Shown here one piece after another: positions 12,796 through 22,700 of a stretch of 64,000 nt of DNA (positions are counted from its first letter, which is position 1; the number at the start of each line of letters is the position of its first letter). The DNA comes from Escherichia coli (GTDB lineage Bacteria > Pseudomonadota > Gammaproteobacteria > Enterobacterales > Enterobacteriaceae). Made by a program: the position numbers and the translations under genes. The notes under the pieces are model-generated. The model searched no databases and was not told the origin of the DNA. It was given only the letters and a program-made list of their open reading frames with translations. Location: the NCBI RefSeq assembly GCF_013315695.1, contig NZ_CP054353.1; one strand, written 5' to 3'.

Positions 12796-13293
12796 CTTTT
12801 GCACCAGAACCAGTGAAGATCACTCACCCGATTTCACTTCCCTGACGTCAGCCTGAACACGGCTGGCGTTTTCATTTATAAACAGAAAGGAAAAATGATG
12901 ATGTCAGATACCACACTCTCCCGCCCGGAGGTGGTCAGCGGGCATACGGACGTTATCTATTCCACCTCAGTCTGCCACATTCTGGCTGTACGAAAGAGTA
13001 CACTGTTGCCAATCGACACAATTATCCGGCATCAAGTAAGCGATATCAGTTAACCGATATAGATGGGGAAGATGCTTTTATCCGGATTGGTTCTATCGCG
13101 ATGGTGCGAGTACCACTTGATGCAATGGAGCCTGTCGAGGAAGATGACGAGTAACAGAGCTCGGTATCTCAATCAGGACCTGATTGTCCTGGTTCGATGC
13201 CGAAAACCAGTGATTTTTCGTGTTGGTATCTGTGTTGGTATAGGATGGTGTTGTTTATTATTAACAATTTTAAATCATGAGGTTAAATCGCAT

Positions 13294-13316
13294 GTTTGAG
13301 TCCGGTCTTCGCACCA
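13294..13316 (+). repeat. tRNA-Leu (leuX-type) 3'-end-like sequence, probable island att remnant
   Basis: gtttgagtccggtcttcgcacca resembles the 3' end of a tRNA-Leu gene (GTTCGAGTCCGGCCTTCGGCACCA from memory); no upstream tRNA body. Confidence 0.4.
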
Positions 13317-13704
13317 CATCGTATGCAAATCGAGTCGCTCAAGGGCGGCTTTTTTTGTACCTGTGTTTTCACTACTTTGTTTGCATGTAACGCTGATAAT
13401 CTAAGAACTTCGGAAGCCCCATTTCCATCAATGATGTTCATTCATCATCCTGAAAATTAAGTAGATATAAAACTTCATTGCCTTGGTCTAATGGCACAGA
13501 AATAGATTGCATTTGGCGAGTGGCATTCTTAGTGCGTCGTTGTTTAGTCATGAAACGATGCGTAAAATTGCTGATTTTATGTGTCAAAGTCCCGCAACCG
13601 GAGATGGCCTTACTTCAATGATCAACCACTATTGACGTATCCTTTTAATATCTTGATTCAATTCAGCAGGTTATCGTCCAAAGTACAGCGAAGAGAGAGA
13701 AAAG

Positions 13705-16596
13705 ATGATTGGTACAACACCTTATCATGCGAAATATTTTGCGCATGAACTTTCCATTCTTCATTCAAACAATGGGGTGGACCGTCTGTCTCAATCGCTG
13801 TTTGATGCAAGCGTAGATCTAAACCCTCATCAAATTGAGGCGGCTCTTTTTGCTATCGAAAATCCGCTAAGCAAAGGTGTTGTGCTTGCCGATGAAGTTG
13901 GTTTGGGTAAAACCATTGAAGCTGGACTAGTGCTTTGCCAGTTGTGGGCTGAAAGAAAACGTAAACTGTTGATCATTTGTCCTGCTTCACTGCGTCGCCA
14001 ATGGGCGAGCGAGTTACAGGAAAAGTTCAATCTACCTTCTCAGGTGTTGGACGCGAAAATGTATAGCCAGCTTCAAAAAGAAGGGATCCATAATCCCTTA
14101 AATAATAAATCGATCACTATTATGTCATACCACTATGCTGCTCGGTTAGAAGAGAAATTGGTGGCTGAAATGTGGGATCTGGTTGTTATCGACGAAGCCC
14201 ATAAACTGCGTAATGCTCATCGAGAAAGCAACAAAATGGGGCAAGCGTTAAAGCGTGCGCTTGATGGGCGGAAGAAATTACTACTGACCGCAACGCCTTT
14301 ACAGAACTCGTTGATGGAACTGTATGGCATGTCGACGCTTATAGATGAACATACCTTCGGCGAAGTTAAAGCGTTCAGAAAGCAATATATGCAGGCAGAT
14401 AGCGATATTGCGGAGTTGAAGGGGCGATTGTCGCGTTTTATCAAACGAACTCTACGCAAGAATGTGCTGGAGTATATCAAGTATACAGAACGTAAAGCGA
14501 TCACTATTCCTTTCTATCCGAGCGAACAGGAGCAGGATCTTTATGAACGCGTACAAAAATTGCTTGAACGTGAGGATAGCTATGCCTTACCAAAACGACA
14601 CCGGCATCTGACGGGGCTTATACTCAGAAAACTACTTTCCTCAAGTACGAAAGCCGTATTGAATAACTTGCAGATCCTTAAGACTCGTTTAGAAAGGTTA
14701 AAGCTGGAAGGTATCGTTGAAGATGATATGGACATCATCCAACAGATCATAATGGATGATGATCTTGAAGATGACATCGTTGAAGATGCCGAATCAGTAG
14801 CGCCAGATACAGAGTGCAAATCTGTGGATTCAGATGCGCTTCAGGCAGAAATCAATGAGCTGGAATCACTCATTGTTAAAGCAGAACAGATTGGCACTGA
14901 TACCAAATCAAAAGAGTTGCTTTCTGGCCTGGAGCAAGGTTTTGCACAGCTTGCCGAAATGGGGGCTGCAAAAAAAGTCATCATCTTCACGGAGTCGATG
15001 CGAACTCAACAGTACCTTGCACATTTTCTGGAAAACAATGGCTACCAGGGAAAAGTAGTAACCTTTAGTGGCACAAACAATACACCGCAGGCAAACAAGA
15101 TCTACCAGCAATGGCGCGAGGAATATCAGGGATCTTCTCGTATTACCGGGTCGGCGCAAATTGATAAACGCTCGGCTTTGATCGACCACTTCAAAGATCA
15201 TGCTGAAATCATGATAGCTACAGAAGCTGCAGCTGAAGGGGTGAACCTGCAATTTTGTTCGCTACTGATCAATTACGATTTACCCTGGAACCCACAACGC
15301 ATTGAGCAGCGTATTGGACGTTGTCACCGATACGGGCAAAAATTTGATGTGGTTGTTATTAACTTCCTCAATCAGCGAAACCAGGCCGATCAACGCGTTC
15401 TTGAACTCTTAACTGAAAAGTTCAGCCTGTTTGATGGCGTGTTTGGCGCATCGGATAGTGTGCTTGGCAGCATAGAAAATGGTGTGGATTTTGAAAAAAG
15501 GATCCAGTCAATTTATGAGTCATGCCGTACCCCCGAGGAGATAGAGCTGGCTTTTGAAAGGTTGCAGAAAGAGCTGGAAGATGAAATCAATCTCAAGATG
15601 CAGAAGACGCAAGAACAGTTGCTTGAGCATTTTGATGAAGATATTCACGATATCCTTAAAATAAGGCTTGATGAAGCTCGGGAGCGCCTGGATAAAGTCG
15701 GTCGTTGGTTTTGGGCCGTGACCTGTCAGCAGCTCAAACAATATGCTGATTTTGATCATGAGCATCATCGTTTCACTTTACGTGAATCAGTCAATGAACT
15801 GCCTGTCGGGCAGTACCAGCTGTTGCGCAAAGATGGCAGGCAAAATAGTGCGTTACAAATGCAGGATCACCACAGTTTTGCATATCGGATCAATCATCCA
15901 CTGGGTGAGTACGTCATTGACGGAGCCAAAGCCCAGGAGACGAAAACAGCTGAAGTCATCTTCGATTACAGTAACCACACAACGAAAGTTTCGGTGGCTG
16001 AGCAGCTGAAAGGGCAATCAGGATGGTTAACACTAAATTTGCTTACTGTTGATGCGTTTAACAGGCAGCAATTTTTAGTCTTTACCGCGAAAACTGACAA
16101 CGGACGTGTGGTAGATGGTGAAGCTTGTAAACGTCTGTTCAACTTGTCTGCAATAACCAACGAAAAGCTGGATAATTCGGCAAGTTTAGATGCATTACCT
16201 GATGACTTGATCTTACTCAAGAACAGGCAAATTGACGCCAGGCTTGCAGAAGTTTTGGAGCAGAACAATGTCCTTTTTGAAGCGGAAAGAGATAAGCTGG
16301 AAAAATGGGCTGAAGACATGATCTTTGCGGCGGAAGAAGCATTACGCGATACCAAAATGCAAATCAAGTCGTTGAAGCGAGAAGCCAGGCTGGCGCAATC
16401 GATCGAAGAACAAAAGCAAAACCAGGAAAAGCTTAAGCTCCTGGAACGGCAGCAGAAGCGCCAACGTATGGAAATTTTTGACATTGAAGATGAGATCGCC
16501 GACAAGCGGGATGAACTCATCAGTGCCCTTGAAGAGCGGATGAAGCAAAAGACGGATATCACCGAGCTGTTTACCATCCGCTGGAAAGTTATTTAA
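13705..16596 (+). CDS. SNF2-family helicase-like ATPase with C-terminal coiled-coil region
   Basis: Motifs in translation: LADEVGLGKTIEAG (Walker A), VVIDEAHKLRN (DEAH-like), LLLTATPLQN, INYDLPWNPQRIEQRIGRCHRYGQ (motifs V-VI); C-terminal ~350 aa rich in E/K/Q heptad-like repeats. Strong RBS aagagagagaaaag before ATG. Confidence 0.85.
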   Translation: MIGTTPYHAKYFAHELSILHSNNGVDRLSQSLFDASVDLNPHQIEAALFAIENPLSKGVVLADEVGLGKTIEAGLVLCQLWAERKRKLLIICPASLRRQWASELQEKFNLPSQVLDAKMYSQLQKEGIHNPLNNKSITIMSYHYAARLEEKLVAEMWDLVVIDEAHKLRNAHRESNKMGQALKRALDGRKKLLLTATPLQNSLMELYGMSTLIDEHTFGEVKAFRKQYMQADSDIAELKGRLSRFIKRTLRKNVLEYIKYTERKAITIPFYPSEQEQDLYERVQKLLEREDSYALPKRHRHLTGLILRKLLSSSTKAVLNNLQILKTRLERLKLEGIVEDDMDIIQQIIMDDDLEDDIVEDAESVAPDTECKSVDSDALQAEINELESLIVKAEQIGTDTKSKELLSGLEQGFAQLAEMGAAKKVIIFTESMRTQQYLAHFLENNGYQGKVVTFSGTNNTPQANKIYQQWREEYQGSSRITGSAQIDKRSALIDHFKDHAEIMIATEAAAEGVNLQFCSLLINYDLPWNPQRIEQRIGRCHRYGQKFDVVVINFLNQRNQADQRVLELLTEKFSLFDGVFGASDSVLGSIENGVDFEKRIQSIYESCRTPEEIELAFERLQKELEDEINLKMQKTQEQLLEHFDEDIHDILKIRLDEARERLDKVGRWFWAVTCQQLKQYADFDHEHHRFTLRESVNELPVGQYQLLRKDGRQNSALQMQDHHSFAYRINHPLGEYVIDGAKAQETKTAEVIFDYSNHTTKVSVAEQLKGQSGWLTLNLLTVDAFNRQQFLVFTAKTDNGRVVDGEACKRLFNLSAITNEKLDNSASLDALPDDLILLKNRQIDARLAEVLEQNNVLFEAERDKLEKWAEDMIFAAEEALRDTKMQIKSLKREARLAQSIEEQKQNQEKLKLLERQQKRQRMEIFDIEDEIADKRDELISALEERMKQKTDITELFTIRWKVI

Positions 16597-16616
16597 TTGA
16601 TTTGAAAGAGAAAATA

Positions 16617-19600
16617 ATGAGTAAGTACAACGAATTAGTTAAGAAGCTAAAAGAAATTTTTCAGATTGATCGACCAGAACTGGATTTCGGTATTTATCGT
16701 ATTTTAAATGCGCGTGCTGATGAAATTAACGACTATCTGGATAATAAGCTGAAGGCCAAAATCCAGTCTGCGCTGGCGGATGCAGGAAATGCCAATAAAT
16801 CAGAATTAGAACATCAGTTGCAACTGACAATAAAAGCGGCAACTGATGCGGGTGTAGACCCTGCTGATAGCCCAAAAGTACAGGAGCTTAAAAAGCAACT
16901 GGCGGCTATGGCATCCGGAGCAAATGAGCATGAAAATGCAGTATTTTCCCATCTGCTCACTTTCTTTTCGCGTTATTATGACAACGGCGATTTTATCAGC
17001 AAACGCCGTTATAAAGGTAATACCTACGCCATCCCCTATTCTGGCGAAGAAGTGATGTTGCACTGGGCAAATAAGGACCAGTACTACATTAAAAGCGGTG
17101 AAAACTTCGCTAATTATTCGTTCAAATTAGAAGACGGTCGTAAAGTTAGCTTTAAATTGCTCGCAGCGGACACAGCAAAAGATAACCGTAAAGATAATGA
17201 ATTAGATCGCTGCTTTGTACTTATTGAGCCACATGTTCGTACCAAAATTGATGAAGAAGGCGATGAGTACGAACAAGAATATAAGCCAGTAGAAGTGGTG
17301 AAAAACTCATCTGTGGTGGACGGTAAACTCGTTGAAACAGAAGAGTTAGTTATTCACTTCGAATATAAGGCAATGAAAAAGGGCACTAAGCAGGATGCTT
17401 TAGTACAGTCCGCCATTTCAACAATTCTGGCAGATAAAACAGTTCAACAGCATTGGGTTGATCTTGCTAAACGTGCGCCAACAGAAAAGAATCCGTCACG
17501 TACAGAGTTGGAGCGTCACCTTACAACTTATACCCAGCGTAATACAGCAGACTACTTTATCCATAAAGATCTCGGTGGTTTTTTAACGAACGAACTGGAT
17601 TTTTATATTAAAAATGAAGTAATGAATCTCGATAATGTGCAAAATGCAGAAGTGTTTGCCAATGTTGAGAAACAATTGCGCATGATTCAATGTTTGCGTG
17701 CTGTTGCGCTGGAACTCATTACATTTTTGGCACAAATTGAGAATTTCCAGAAAAAACTTTGGACTAAGAAGAAGTTTGTTGTTGGGCATGAGTATCTTGT
17801 GTCACTTTCAAATCTATCAGATTCGCTTTACGATAAAATTCGAACTAATAAAGGGCAACATGATGAATGGGTTGAGCTTTATGCTGTAAATAAAATTCCT
17901 GGATATTCATTTCCATTCACAAAAGATTTCTTGTATAAAAATAATGGTATGATATTGGATACAAAATATTTTGATCCGTCATTTAAGGAGGTTTTTTTAA
18001 CAGAGTTAACTAATGTTGACGATAATTTAGATGGTCTCTTAATTAATTCAGATAATTATCAGGCCATTAATTTTTTGGAGGGGCGGTATAAGGACTCAAT
18101 AGACTGTCTTTATATTGATCCTCCGTATAATACTGCGGCTTCAGAAATTTTATATAAAAATGAATATAAGCACAGCAGCTGGAATTCATTAATGTATGAA
18201 AGGATATCTAAAAGCTATAATTTACTGAAAATTTCTGCAATTAATTTTACCGCGATAGATCATGCGGAATTATATAATCTTGGTAAGATCAAGGATGAAA
18301 TCTATGGAGAACAAAACAGGATAGCAGTTGTTACTGTTCAGCATAATCCTAAAGGGCGTAACCAGGCAAAGTTCTTTTCTGAAAATACTGAGTATATGTT
18401 AGTATATGCTAAAGATTTTAATGCTGCTAACTTTAACTCTGTAGCTATCGATGAGGATGTGCTTTTAACATTCACAGAACAAGATAATATAGGCCGTTAT
18501 CGTTGGGAAAACTTTATTCGTGCAAGAACAAGTTGGTCCAGAGCAAATAGACCAAATAACTGGTATCCTTTATACGTCTCTTCCGACTTAAAATCAATTT
18601 CTGTTGATTATGTAGATGGGTATATCGAAGTATATCCTACAACTAAACAGGGGGATTTTTCGTGGAAAAATATTAAAGAATCATTTGTTGAATTAAATAA
18701 AGATAATTATTTTAAAGCTGTAAATGAAAATGGAGAAATAAAAATCTATCATAAATATAGGGAGCAGCAAGTCTTTAAAAATCTTTGGATTGATAAGAAA
18801 TATCAGTCTGAGTTTAATGGTACAAATTTACTGAAAAACATACTTGGACAATCACTATTTGATTATCCGAAATCATTATATGCAGTACAAGATGCAATCA
18901 AAATGTCGACACCACACAATGGTATTGTATTGGACTATTTTGCAGGTTCAGGGACAACTTCTCATGCAGTAATAAACCTTAATAATTCAGATAATCTCTG
19001 TATGAAATTTATCAATGTTGAAATGGGTACTCATTTCAATACAGTAGTTATTCCAAGATTGAAGAAAATTGGATATTCAAACTTATGGAAACAATGTAAA
19101 CCAATCGGTAAACCTCAAAAAATGACTATCAAGTATTTGAAACTTGAAAGTTATGAGGATGCTCTTAATAATATACAATTACGAAGTTATTCATTGCATC
19201 AGGATATTTTCGACATTTTGGTGGAAGATGTAAAATCAGAGTTTGCTCTTAAATATATTTTTGAAAATGAATTATTTTATTCACTATTAAATACTGATAA
19301 TTTCAAAAAACCATTTAACTACGAAATGGATATTGCGACGGATTCCGCCGGTGCCACTGAGCGTAAAAACATCGATTTAGTTGAAACTTTCAATTATCTC
19401 ATTGGCTTACATGTGAAATCCATCGAATCTGATATCGCACGTGGCTATGTGCGTATTGAAGGAACGCTGCCAACAGGCGAGCGTACCCTTATTCTGTGGC
19501 GCGATTGCGACAAGATCGGTTATGAAGAATTGAATAAATATGCCAACCGATTTGATTTGTATGCAAAAGAAAACACGTTCGACGTTATCTACATCAATGG

Positions 19601-19721
19601 CGATCATAACTTACCTACCGCCTTTACCGTTGATGAAGAAGACGGCGAGATTGTTCGTAGCCTGAAAATTCGCCAGATCGAACCTGAATTCTTGAACCTG
19701 ATGTTTGCGGAGGAGGTTTAA
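16617..19721 (+). CDS. Mod-like amino-methyltransferase (beta-class, DPPY) with ~500-aa N-terminal domain of unknown function
   Basis: ORF 16602..19721; preferred start ATG 16617 (RBS gaaagag). DCLYIDPPYN (motif IV) precedes VLDYFAGSGTTSHAV (motif I) by ~270 aa, the order seen in Type III Mod enzymes. Stop overlaps SD of next gene. Confidence 0.85.
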   Translation: MSKYNELVKKLKEIFQIDRPELDFGIYRILNARADEINDYLDNKLKAKIQSALADAGNANKSELEHQLQLTIKAATDAGVDPADSPKVQELKKQLAAMASGANEHENAVFSHLLTFFSRYYDNGDFISKRRYKGNTYAIPYSGEEVMLHWANKDQYYIKSGENFANYSFKLEDGRKVSFKLLAADTAKDNRKDNELDRCFVLIEPHVRTKIDEEGDEYEQEYKPVEVVKNSSVVDGKLVETEELVIHFEYKAMKKGTKQDALVQSAISTILADKTVQQHWVDLAKRAPTEKNPSRTELERHLTTYTQRNTADYFIHKDLGGFLTNELDFYIKNEVMNLDNVQNAEVFANVEKQLRMIQCLRAVALELITFLAQIENFQKKLWTKKKFVVGHEYLVSLSNLSDSLYDKIRTNKGQHDEWVELYAVNKIPGYSFPFTKDFLYKNNGMILDTKYFDPSFKEVFLTELTNVDDNLDGLLINSDNYQAINFLEGRYKDSIDCLYIDPPYNTAASEILYKNEYKHSSWNSLMYERISKSYNLLKISAINFTAIDHAELYNLGKIKDEIYGEQNRIAVVTVQHNPKGRNQAKFFSENTEYMLVYAKDFNAANFNSVAIDEDVLLTFTEQDNIGRYRWENFIRARTSWSRANRPNNWYPLYVSSDLKSISVDYVDGYIEVYPTTKQGDFSWKNIKESFVELNKDNYFKAVNENGEIKIYHKYREQQVFKNLWIDKKYQSEFNGTNLLKNILGQSLFDYPKSLYAVQDAIKMSTPHNGIVLDYFAGSGTTSHAVINLNNSDNLCMKFINVEMGTHFNTVVIPRLKKIGYSNLWKQCKPIGKPQKMTIKYLKLESYEDALNNIQLRSYSLHQDIFDILVEDVKSEFALKYIFENELFYSLLNTDNFKKPFNYEMDIATDSAGATERKNIDLVETFNYLIGLHVKSIESDIARGYVRIEGTLPTGERTLILWRDCDKIGYEELNKYANRFDLYAKENTFDVIYINGDHNLPTAFTVDEEDGEIVRSLKIRQIEPEFLNLMFAEEV

Positions 19722-19723
19722 GA

Positions 19724-22700
19724 ATGGCTAAAAAACCGACCACCGGTAAAGCAGTTAAAAAAGAGACTAACAGCAAGCTGAGCTTTCATAAACAACTGGT
19801 TTTAAACCGCTTTATGTTCCATTTTTTCAAAGATGGCACATTGCAAGGTTTGAAGAATCGGTTAGGCGAGGATCGCTTTGAAGGCATCCATGAAGATGGC
19901 CAAAGCTTGTTCTTCCATGAGCTGAGTAACTATTTATTCGAGGTCGATCTAATCGATCTCGATGAACTGCGTCGTTACGATCTCAATATCGTGCAGCACT
20001 GGCAGCAGATAACCGAGCACCGTAATCGTAAAGAAGACACTGTGCTGAACATGAAATATTTTCAGTACTTGTCGCTTCTGTTTACCGAGATCTACCTGGA
20101 CTGGTACTTCAATCGTAAACAGCAATTACTCGATGGGCTAAATAACGAGCTGGCAGCATACAATGCTGAAAATGATAAAACAGCAAAAGACCGGGCTAAT
20201 CAGTTCAAATCATATGTTCTGGATGATTTGAATAAATTGGCATACTGGAACGCTACTGGTTCTGGTAAGACACTGCTATTACATGTCAATATTTTGCAAT
20301 ATTTACATTATTTCCAGAACGGTAATAGCCATCATTATCCGGATAAAATCATCCTGCTTACGCCGGATGAACGCCTGTCGAAGCAACATTTAGATGAACT
20401 GGAAAACTCAGGGTTTACCCAATACCAGTTGTTCGATAAGAGTAAATCAGCGCCCTTCAAAGGCACGATTGAAGTCATTGATATCAATAAACTTGATGAT
20501 AAAATGGGCGACAAAACTGTTGCCGTTGAGGCATTTGAAGGCAACAATCTGGTCCTGATTGATGAAGGGCATAAAGGCACAGGAAGTGCTGCTGGTGCCT
20601 GGATGCGCCGTCGTGACAAGTTAACTCGTGACGGATTTGCGTTTGAATATTCAGCAACTTTTGGCCAGGCAGTAGCCGGTGGCAATAATGTGGAGGCAGT
20701 TGAAACAGAAATTCAGAAGAAAAAAGCAAAGCTGCTTTTTGAAACAACTGCCTTAGGCAAATTGAGCGAAGAAGAGTTAGCACAAATAGCATTAACCAGC
20801 GAAGAACAACGTGATGCGCGTATTCAGGCGACGCGAGAAGTCTATGGGAAATCGATTCTGTTCGATTACTCCTATAAATTCTTCTATGAGGATGGTTATG
20901 GCAAAGAATCACTGATTCTTAACCTTAATCCGCAAGATGATAAAAAAGATGAGCGTCGGTATGAGTATTTTACCGCGTGTTTGCTCAGCTTTTATCAGCA
21001 ACAATATTTATTCAATAAAAATAAAGAAAAATTAAATGAATTTAATATCGAAAAACCGCTGTGGGTTTTTGTCGGTAATTCTGTAAGTGGTGAAGATTCA
21101 GACATTCACGCAGTATTGCGTTTTTTAGCATGGTTTTTAAACCACGAAACGCAGGCAAAAGCGTGGATTAACGATCTCATTAAAAATAAAGCGCGAATCC
21201 TCGATACCAAAGAGCGTAACATTTTTGAAAATCGCTTTACTGCACTAATGAACGCTCCGGAAGATATCTACGCAGATATTCTTTCTCGCTTGTTTAACAC
21301 CACTCACTCTGGTCAGCGACTGCGAGTTCTGAATTTAATAGGCAGTAAAGGTGAACTGGCATTACAGGTTGGTGAGGCCGAACCGTTTGGCCTTATCAAT
21401 ATTGGTGATGCACCGTCTCTTTACAAAATGTGTGAAGAGGATACGACATTTGATTATCAGAGAGATGATTTTGCAAAGTCGCTCTTTCATACGTTAAATG
21501 ACAAAGACTCGCGACTACATATTTTGATCGGCTCGCGAAAATTTACTGAAGGCTGGAGCAGTTGGCGCGTCTCAACGATGGGATTGCTCAATATGGGCCG
21601 TGGAGAAGGTTCACAGATCATTCAGTTATTTGGCCGTGGCGTTCGCCTTAAAGGTCGCAATTATTCTTTGAAACGCAGTACACCCGGTGAGCGTCCGAAA
21701 GGGTTGCATCTGGAAAAATTAGAGACACTGAATGTATTCGGTGTACGTGCCGATTACATGGCAACCTTTAAACAATACCTGGAAGATGAAGGGATTACGC
21801 CAAGTGACGAGATCCTTGAGCTGAATTTTGAAACTCGGCCAAATATGCCAGCAACCAGGCTTAAAACACTTAAGCTCAAAGATGGTTATAAAGATAATCA
21901 AAGACTCGGCTTTAAACGTGTCTATTTTCCCGAATTGTATGAAGTTCCTGCTGATTTTCAGGGGAAAATTAAGCAGCCGCATATTAAGCTGGACCTATAC
22001 CCGAAACTTGAGTCGATTGATACCAGCAGAAAAGGGGAAAATACTCCGGTTAACGTGCGTAATGAAGCGAAGTTAGATTATAAAATCATTAGTGCGTTTG
22101 ATTTTGATCGGCTTTATCTCGCCATTCAGAATTATAAACTACAACGCGGCTGGTCAAATTTACGTGTGGATAAACAACGTTTGATCGACTTTTGTACCGG
22201 TAAGACAAAGATCGGAAATAGTTGGTATACCCTTTTGATTCCAGCTTCAGAACTTGAGATTAAGCAATATGCAGATATTGCTAAGCAGGAAGATATTATG
22301 CTTCGTCTGCTGACTGATTATACTGATCGCTTTTACAACACATTGAAAAATGCTTATGAAGGTCAGTTTTATGAAGTCACGCAGGTGAAAGAAGATGATC
22401 CTGGTATGATCAAAATGTACCATTTCGAGATCGAAGAAACTGATGATGGGTTGGCATATGCCAGTCGGCTGGAACAATTACAACAATTGGTCATCGACGG
22501 CGAAATCGGTAAAGCAAAATCCTGGAGTGCATCCGGGATGGTTGCTATTACCTTTGATAAACATCTCTATTATCCACTTCTTTCGATTGAAAAAAATGCC
22601 AACATACCGCTAAAAATGCGACCGGCAGCACTGGGTGCATCAAGTGAGATTACTTTTGTCCATGATCTTCAGTCTTTTGTTGATTCGACAAAAGGGCAGA

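Follow-up and report, generated by a model that had tools for sequence, protein, structure and literature searches.

Introduction

The gene described here is a Type III-like mod gene of Escherichia coli, which lies in a chromosomal stretch of 64,000 nucleotides (contig NZ_CP054353.1, RefSeq assembly GCF_013315695.1; hereafter the window). Its closest described counterparts are the mosaic mod genes of Type III restriction-modification (R-M) systems. In modA of Haemophilus influenzae and of pathogenic Neisseria, a hypervariable centre is placed between conserved ends and the catalytic motifs reside in conserved domains (Bayliss 2006, PMC1557822). The modA alleles share more than 95% identity within a class and about 30-38% at the amino acid level between classes (PMC1557822; PMC3311624). 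The DNA recognition domain (DRD) of modA12 has a GC content of 28% against 40% in the flanks and a diversity of 0.2% against 1.5-2.4%, and is replaced en bloc (Gawthorne 2012, PMC3311624, Table 2 and text). In Helicobacter pylori, target recognition domains (TRD) move between non-orthologous Type III mod genes by recombination that is proposed to occur at 8-117 bp of motif-coding similarity (Furuta & Kobayashi 2012, PMC3467074).

The E. coli gene is the middle component of an SNF2-Mod-Res operon with three genes on the plus strand (13705-23104). It contains an AT-rich central block that is very probably an interchangeable specificity module of Mod, exchanged between strains by recombination. 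The resemblance to modA includes the conserved flanks, the hypervariable centre, the discrete alleles, the conserved res gene and, presumably, recombination in the flanks. The lower GC content and the lower diversity of the variable part (here 0.47% vs about 3%) are also common to both. On the other hand, the variable region of modA comprises 594-750 nt (or 895 nt), whereas here it spans 1.5 kb and includes the DPPY and FxGxG motifs. The conserved flanks of the E. coli gene are family-specific arms outside the methyltransferase fold, an SNF2 gene is part of the operon, and there is neither repeat tract nor phase variation. Unlike Haemophilus and Neisseria, E. coli is not naturally transformable in their manner and uptake sequences play no role.

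As in H. pylori, the TRD and the remainder of the protein have incongruent phylogenies and TRD homologues occur in distant bacteria, which matches a second, nested level of exchange described below for the cassette of the window. The movement in H. pylori takes place between loci of one genome, whereas here it would link different Mod architectures from different phyla, and no donor was found. Compared with EcoP1I and EcoP15I (structure 4ZCF, PMC4490356), Mod is about 400 amino acids longer and has N- and C-terminal arms that are absent from EcoP15I Mod, Res has no sequence match to EcoP15I Res and the SNF2 gene is additional.

Base composition of the mod gene

In 300-nt windows, the GC content lies at 0.27-0.36 over all of 17800-19350, against 0.37-0.47 in the remaining operon. 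A two-breakpoint maximum-likelihood segmentation of 13705-23104 placed the best low-GC segment at 17555-19335 (GC 0.309, with 0.436 and 0.406 in the flanking segments). Its log-likelihood ratio was 42.1, while 100 shuffles of 30-nt blocks gave a mean of 6.5 and a maximum of 13.9. The low-GC block that an initial annotation of this DNA had noticed by eye at about 17.8-19.35 kb is therefore real and lies where it was placed, and the step found by the segmentation goes far beyond chance. The same annotation described the ends of mod as GC-balanced, which does not hold: with a GC content of about 0.40-0.42, against 0.31 for 17784-19282, they are still well under the E. coli backbone of the window (0.515).

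The drop is largely synonymous. The GC content at third codon positions (GC3) is 0.24 in the block, 0.37 in the 5' part and 0.44 in the 3' part of mod. At 4-fold degenerate sites the corresponding values are 0.19, 0.37 and 0.51, with 0.485 in SNF2 and 0.46 in Res. The amino acid shift is smaller, with a share of F, Y, M, I, N and K residues (FYMINK) of 0.40 in the block vs 0.33. This share is a point in favour of an intrinsic constraint without exchange, in which the segment would be AT-rich through its amino acids or weak codon selection, and the alleles would have diverged in place by point mutation and diversifying selection. However, the 4-fold GC content of 0.19 goes beyond amino acid content and rules out amino acid composition as the cause of the dip.

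Cassette classes in E. coli

The mod gene is present in 166 of 5,426 complete E. coli genomes. The gene of the window is matched at full length in 16 of these carriers; the others match only both ends (52% of the query, about 97% identical), with a nearly equal gene length. A sliding comparison with the operon of strain A3024 (L001) shows 94-100% identity over SNF2, the first 1.18 kb and last 0.44 kb of mod, and Res, against 23-66% between about 17787 and 19280. The junctions are sharp (17783/17784 and about 19282/19283) and coincide with the composition step: on the left, the identity stops immediately after ...AAGAAGTTTGTTGTT (17783), and on the right it is back from about 19283.

Representatives of every length class fall into five discrete cassette classes, each of about 1.5 kb and with a GC content of 0.31-0.34. 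The DNA identity is 50-56% between classes and 94-98% in the surrounding arms. Searches with each cassette assigned 164 of the 166 carriers: 16 to class A (that of the window), 34 to B, 18 to C, 91 to D and 5 to E, and within each class nearly all cassette copies share 99% identity or more. At the protein level, residues 1-394 and 895-1039 are near-invariant across classes and everything between them is replaced, including the surroundings of DPPY and FAGSGT; the DPPY and FxGxG regions are 41-52% identical between classes. The mosaicism suggested by the initial annotation is thus borne out by the alignment to homologous operons that it had proposed, in which the identity collapses at sharp junctions between conserved flanks. 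The discreteness of the classes, with no intermediates, argues against divergence in place.

The histories of cassette and arms are decoupled. The window and strain D8 (L002), which both carry cassette A, differ at 7 of 1499 nt in the cassette (0.47%) and at 2.75-3.4% in SNF2, both arms and Res. The loci L005 and L006 have identical N-arms with cassettes B and E, respectively, and L005 shares a 99% identical cassette with L001 in arms that are 96% identical. An identical Res protein (WP_001085525.1) accompanies cassette B in strain NCTC86 and cassette C in O157:H16 Santai. As in genes of the modA type, the same cassette is found in diverged flanks and different cassettes in near-identical or identical ones. 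This supports the exchange of a module by recombination, as first proposed, and is a further argument against divergence in place.

Switching within the genome was also considered, either by a site-specific recombinase acting on silent copies, as in the Type I hsdS shufflons, or in the form of a phase-variable phasevarion mod. Such mechanisms are common in R-M specificity genes (PMC5909438). Nevertheless, blastn and tblastn found no second mod copy or fragment in the 64-kb window, the junctions are free of significant inverted or direct repeats, and the genomes have a median of one mod place each. Tandem Repeats Finder returned only two trivial 2-copy arrays in 13000-24000 and no simple-sequence tract in the operon, and no recombinase gene adjoins the operon. 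On the absence of silent copies in the window, of repeats at the junctions, of tracts in the operon and of an adjacent recombinase gene, shufflon and phasevarion were rejected in favour of allelic replacement between strains, and the probability left to switching is practically negligible.

Some copies of the gene are damaged. The apparent outliers of the census (H94-H101) belong to class D and are split by IS1 or IS5. In this class, mod has repeatedly been interrupted or truncated by an IS1, IS5 or ISKpn26 element, with the downstream res intact (L007 5796-6493, L008 3786-4483, L009 4872-5852; H65, H103-H105). The class B copies have an internal stop in L001 and a frameshift in L005, and are intact in NCTC86 and A3. 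Intact representatives of the other classes include 2017.04.03CC and D8 (A), O157:H16 Santai (C), FORC_031 (D) and GF130 (E). The insertions, the stop and the frameshift suggest that the system is recurrently inactivated via Mod.

Architecture of Mod

The coordinates of the operon genes and of the components of Mod are collected in Table 1. The PADLOC profile for Type III methyltransferases matches Mod end to end (1551 bits), and the only Pfam domain in it is N6_N4_Mtase (residues 500-809). NCBIfam has no equivalog for Mod or Res. The matches to solved Type III Mods, from a sequence search of the Protein Data Bank (PDB), fall inside the cassette (residues 474-877 of the ORF, numbered from the ATG), while neither the N-arm nor the C-arm has a Pfam or PDB match. 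As in Type III systems, Mod is a β-class N6-adenine methyltransferase with the order DPPY, TRD, FxGxG and is homologous to known Type III Mods. The cassette holds the complete methyltransferase core with the TRD and corresponds roughly to the entire core of a classical Type III Mod. The arms are additions specific to the SNF2-Mod-Res family. The swapped unit was expected from the start to hold the DPPY core, the presumed TRD and FxGxG; this proved correct, since the whole core (residues 395-894) is replaced and not the TRD alone.

In the AlphaFold model of Mod (pLDDT 81, pTM 0.74), a long helix and a loop precede the left junction, and the right junction closes a helical linker of lower confidence that precedes the C-arm. 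Both positions in the model are consistent with domain boundaries.

Table 1. Location of the SNF2-Mod-Res genes and of the segments and motifs of Mod in the window.
Feature	Coordinates	Strand	Description
SNF2-family helicase gene, DrmD-like, first in operon	13705..16596	+	963 aa; Pfam SNF2-rel_dom 1.3e-36 and Helicase_C; PADLOC DrmD 662 bits
Type III-like Mod gene	16602..19721	+	1039-aa ORF; starts TTG 16602; RefSeq start ATG 16617
Conserved N-terminal arm of Mod, aa 1-394	16602..17783	+	GC 0.40; 96-98% nt and about 99% aa identity across five E. coli classes
Nucleotide-conservation peak abutting the left junction, candidate recombination anchor	17727..17786	+	Encodes FQKKLW.KKKFV; mean pairwise identity 0.70-0.74, 66 sequences
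Exchangeable AT-rich cassette, class A, aa 395-894	17784..19282	+	Whole methyltransferase core and TRD; GC 0.31; 50-56% nt identity to four other E. coli classes
DPPY, motif IV, aa 506-509	18117..18128	+	Invariant in 69/69 family sequences and all five E. coli alleles
Approximate TRD, aa 561-755	18282..18866	+	24-30% identical to other E. coli cassettes; lowest part of family GC3 trough
FAGSGT, motif I, S-adenosylmethionine binding, aa 780-785	18939..18956	+	F/G/S/T columns (nearly) invariant in family; aligned to EcoP15I Mod motif
Conserved C-terminal arm of Mod, aa 895-1039	19283..19721	+	GC 0.415; 94-98% nt identity among classes
Type III-like Res gene	19724..23104	+	1126 aa; SF2 helicase and C-terminal PD-(D/E)xK-like motif; PADLOC REase_III PDLC03654 2306 bits, end to end; Pfam ResIII 5e-8

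The GC3 trough across the family

A scan with one genome per species gave 173 relatives, of which 80 loci were retrieved. They come from Proteobacteria, Chlorobi, Bacteroidetes, Firmicutes, Spirochaetes, Poribacteria and one metagenome-assembled genome (MAG) of Methanoperedens, and 65 of them are full-length. The GC3 of the segment homologous to the cassette is lower than that of the arms in all 65 loci, each from its own species (mean difference -0.158, Wilcoxon p=2e-12), and the total GC content is lower in 59. The arm and cassette GC3 are 0.85 vs 0.56 in Alterinioella and 0.80 vs 0.42 in a Bacteroidales MAG. The family-averaged trough is deepest (-0.22 to -0.28) at residues 530-780, with shoulders that extend to about residues 400 and 860. 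Homologues with the same composition profile had been named in advance as evidence that would speak against mosaicism. Such homologues exist, in all 65 species and in the five E. coli cassettes, yet they are mosaic too.

The poorly conserved stretches of the arms serve as a control, with a GC3 deficit of only -0.04 to -0.09. Low conservation as the sole cause of the trough was rejected on these values. The slight deficit is of the kind expected from an intrinsic constraint, but it stays far from the values in the trough core. Moreover, the histories of cassette and arms are incongruent across the family. Among 66 members, there are pairs with arms 92-95% identical and cassettes 39-53%, as well as pairs with arms 38-46% and cassettes 58-65% identical; in 362 of 2145 pairs, the similarity of the cassettes exceeds that of the arms. 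Measured against the E. coli cassette, the identity remains at 0.28-0.43 throughout, even in Shewanella xiamenensis with its 87% identical arms. An intrinsic constraint without exchange is exceedingly unlikely on these grounds.

The N-arm GC content follows that of the host across the family. The cassette GC3 follows the arm GC3 as 0.13 + 0.50 x arm GC3 (r=0.79), with equality only at a GC3 of about 0.25. The slope of 0.50, together with the consistently lower GC3, indicates that the cassette partially ameliorates yet stays AT-shifted. Simple mixing between hosts would give cassettes that are GC-richer than the arms in AT-rich hosts, and the GC3 values do not show this. The module therefore has the dip as a standing property, and not as the scar of one recent import.

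A single recent import would be the simplest form of the opposite explanation: the central segment would come from a low-GC donor and the step would be its un-ameliorated scar. The step is indeed sharp and largely synonymous, and the named cassette relatives include the low-GC Tenacibaculum and Flavobacterium. On the other hand, all five E. coli cassettes are equally AT-rich, the trough is common to all 65 species, including hosts with an arm GC3 of 0.85, and the correlation of cassette and host GC3 points to long residence or to exchange among similar hosts. Nor is a recent donor visible: in a search of 5.8 billion proteins, cassette A is 49-59% identical to its best full-length relatives outside E. 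coli, and one 299-residue fragment reaches 64%. A single import is very unlikely and, as the sole explanation, already largely refuted.

Mobile and recently acquired DNA is reportedly AT-rich in general, and the dip fits this pattern. The most plausible reading of the AT-richness is a segment whose turnover between lineages outpaces its amelioration, combined with a bias towards AT. An alternative cause would be AT-biased mutation, if the segment is unable to recombine with other alleles.

Nested exchange of the TRD

The relatives of cassette A include some truncated long-armed Mods and many classical short Type III Mods (PF12564 and PF01555, about 640 amino acids). The cassette A TRD is 64-70% identical to the TRD of short Mods (e.g. 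from Tenacibaculum maritimum, P0029) and of other long-armed Mods, whereas the catalytic regions of those short Mods are only 36-42% identical to cassette A. This difference indicates that the TRD type is common to different methyltransferase frameworks. At this deeper level, TRD would also pass between differing frameworks.

Res and the organisation of the family

Five E. coli Res alleles were compared: all have 3381 nt, and their identity does not fall below 92% in any 150-nt window. The initial annotation had described parts of the Res gene as similarly AT-rich. Two short low-GC spots are present (150-nt windows at 20924, GC 0.31, and 22874, GC 0.29), but they are neither allelic nor mosaic. 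The motif-level features of the putative nuclease, E975, P1023-D1024, [D/E]1043-P-[K/H]1045 and K1056, are kept in 52 of 52 family members. The putative (D/E)-x-K lysine (window 22850-22858, residues 1043-1045) is a histidine in 15 of the 52 and K1056 is invariant; K1056 may be the true catalytic lysine. A PDB sequence search with Res gave nothing meaningful.

The res gene lies downstream of mod in 61 of the 65 family loci. An SNF2 gene is found upstream on the same strand in at least 43, a lower bound because contigs end near some loci. In two Pasteurellaceae it follows downstream of res instead. These are Necropsobacter and Haemophilus paraphrohaemolyticus (L038 6339-7919, L041 11436-12848), in which the association is kept and the order is not. 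The unit is therefore not the two-gene mod-res pair of Type III R-M systems, since the SNF2 gene belongs to it. In many members (L016, L022, L026, L030, L039, L043, L067, L080 and others) res begins about 1-2 kb past the end of mod, against 2 nt in E. coli, which implies an extra gene between mod and res in those lineages.

Class 1 DISARM, formed by the SNF2 helicase DrmD, the adenine methylase DrmMI and DrmA, DrmB and DrmC, also has a DrmD-type helicase and a large adenine methyltransferase, and in the E. coli operon a DrmD-like helicase stands directly upstream of such an enzyme. In contrast to DISARM, the SNF2 protein scores 667 bits against the NCBIfam model DISARM_DrmD_b, under its cut-off of 950, the REase_III profile is the sole match of the third gene, and the genes annotated nearby are unrelated. 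DrmA, DrmB (DUF1998) and DrmC were found neither in the third gene, by profiles, nor among the annotated neighbours. An identity with DISARM was rejected in view of the missing DrmA and DrmB. A literature search on the combination of SNF2 and Type III components (including PMC11232893) yielded no description of this three-gene system, and neither a published name nor a REBASE specificity was established.

Genomic setting

The whole operon, with a GC content of 0.36-0.445, is compositionally foreign to the E. coli backbone of the window. The SNF2 gene is 94-100% identical among E. coli operons with differing cassettes. The mod gene is 100% identical in several complete E. coli genomes. In a strain identical over mod, the island includes the operon, Ag43, an antirestriction gene and YeeU/CbtA genes, and is placed upstream of both nanS/M/C and the fim operon. 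Its edge is marked, in a related strain, by a tRNA-Leu gene and an integrase gene. This island was acquired horizontally. No plasmid matched mod in a search, and the system therefore appears to be chromosomal and island-borne.

At about 13000 of the window, the GC content drops from 0.51-0.56 in the CP4-like island genes (Ag43, antirestriction, YeeU/CbtA) to about 0.42 where SNF2-Mod-Res begins, and truncated regulator pseudogenes are found at this boundary (L090 16300-16553). The operon seems to have been inserted separately into the island. On the 3' side of res, 23350-23800 is very AT-rich (GC 0.23-0.25), around and beyond a minus-strand ORF (23151-23453, 100 amino acids, no family match). 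Strain D8 is unalignable here (identity 0.03-0.41 at 23481-23679), which makes this operon edge a second variable spot. Downstream of the operon, at about 23760-24400 (L090 27162-27801), lie the remnants of a "phosphorothioated DNA-binding restriction endonuclease" and of an HNH endonuclease. Both are pseudogenes in the window and in D8, and the former is intact (873 nt) in A3024 (L001 16183-17055); its remnant is a second defence gene decaying in the same island.

Further low-GC stretches of the window occur at 1-1000 (0.39) and 27000-30000 (0.365-0.376). The first is intergenic, with a truncated yfjI-like gene on one side and a GTPase gene on the other. The second corresponds, by mapping to L090, to nanC, the long nanC-fimB intergenic region and fimB.

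Mechanism of exchange

The near-identical arms and the neighbouring genes would provide kilobases of homology for a double crossover within E. coli. Incoming DNA with another cassette would then replace the resident one en bloc through homologous recombination in the arms. The arms may dock Mod to Res and/or to the SNF2 protein. If Mod supplies the recognition for Res, as in Type III systems, one swap should change the specificity of both methylation and restriction with Res unchanged. For the exchange between diverged operons, the conserved stretch at the left junction (17727-17786) may act as the anchor. This peak is among the 20 most conserved 30-nt windows of the gene, and 17766-17783 has exact matches of 16-18 nt to distant genera.

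Several points weigh against the exchange of a specificity module as described. The right junction is only loosely tied to conservation: the peaks there are weaker or, in the case of the strongest one, about 100 nt downstream. The change of specificity rests on Type III biology, and a comparison of Res with EcoP15I Res by phmmer gave no similarity even at E<=1; with the third, SNF2 gene in addition, the mechanics of classical Type III systems may hold only in part. The sharp drop of divergence at the junctions, seen between the window and D8, could reflect a frequent shuffling of arm polymorphisms among the classes instead of a single recent cassette transfer. Both options involve recombination, and this comparison leaves direction and timing unsettled. 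Finally, the cause proposed above for the directional AT bias is an inference.

Significance

Mosaic Type III mod genes with AT-rich variable domains are already established, and the advance is incremental in this respect. The new elements are a clean series of five alleles in E. coli, the exchange of the whole core between adaptor arms, and an AT trough that is general and directional across 65 species.

A broader reading, for the present rather unlikely, takes the SNF2-Mod-Res family as a widespread "plug-and-play" defence system. Its arms would be adaptors for any complete Type III methyltransferase core, and the cores and TRD would form a phylum-crossing pool with an AT-shifted equilibrium of its own. 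If this were true, the AT bias would belong to R-M specificity modules in general, perhaps through selection, and would not simply mark their origin. Its possible causes in that case include a transient xenogeneic silencing after the swap or the exclusion from GC-biased recombinational repair.

For genome annotation, a sharp GC trough inside the gene of an R-M methyltransferase is a reliable sign of the exchangeable specificity module and is no evidence for one recent transfer from a low-GC donor. The five cassettes, placed in otherwise near-identical operons of 164 sequenced E. coli strains, constitute a natural experiment. If whole cores are indeed exchanged between adaptor arms with no re-tuning of the Res or SNF2 partner, this arrangement would be useful for the engineering of R-M specificity.

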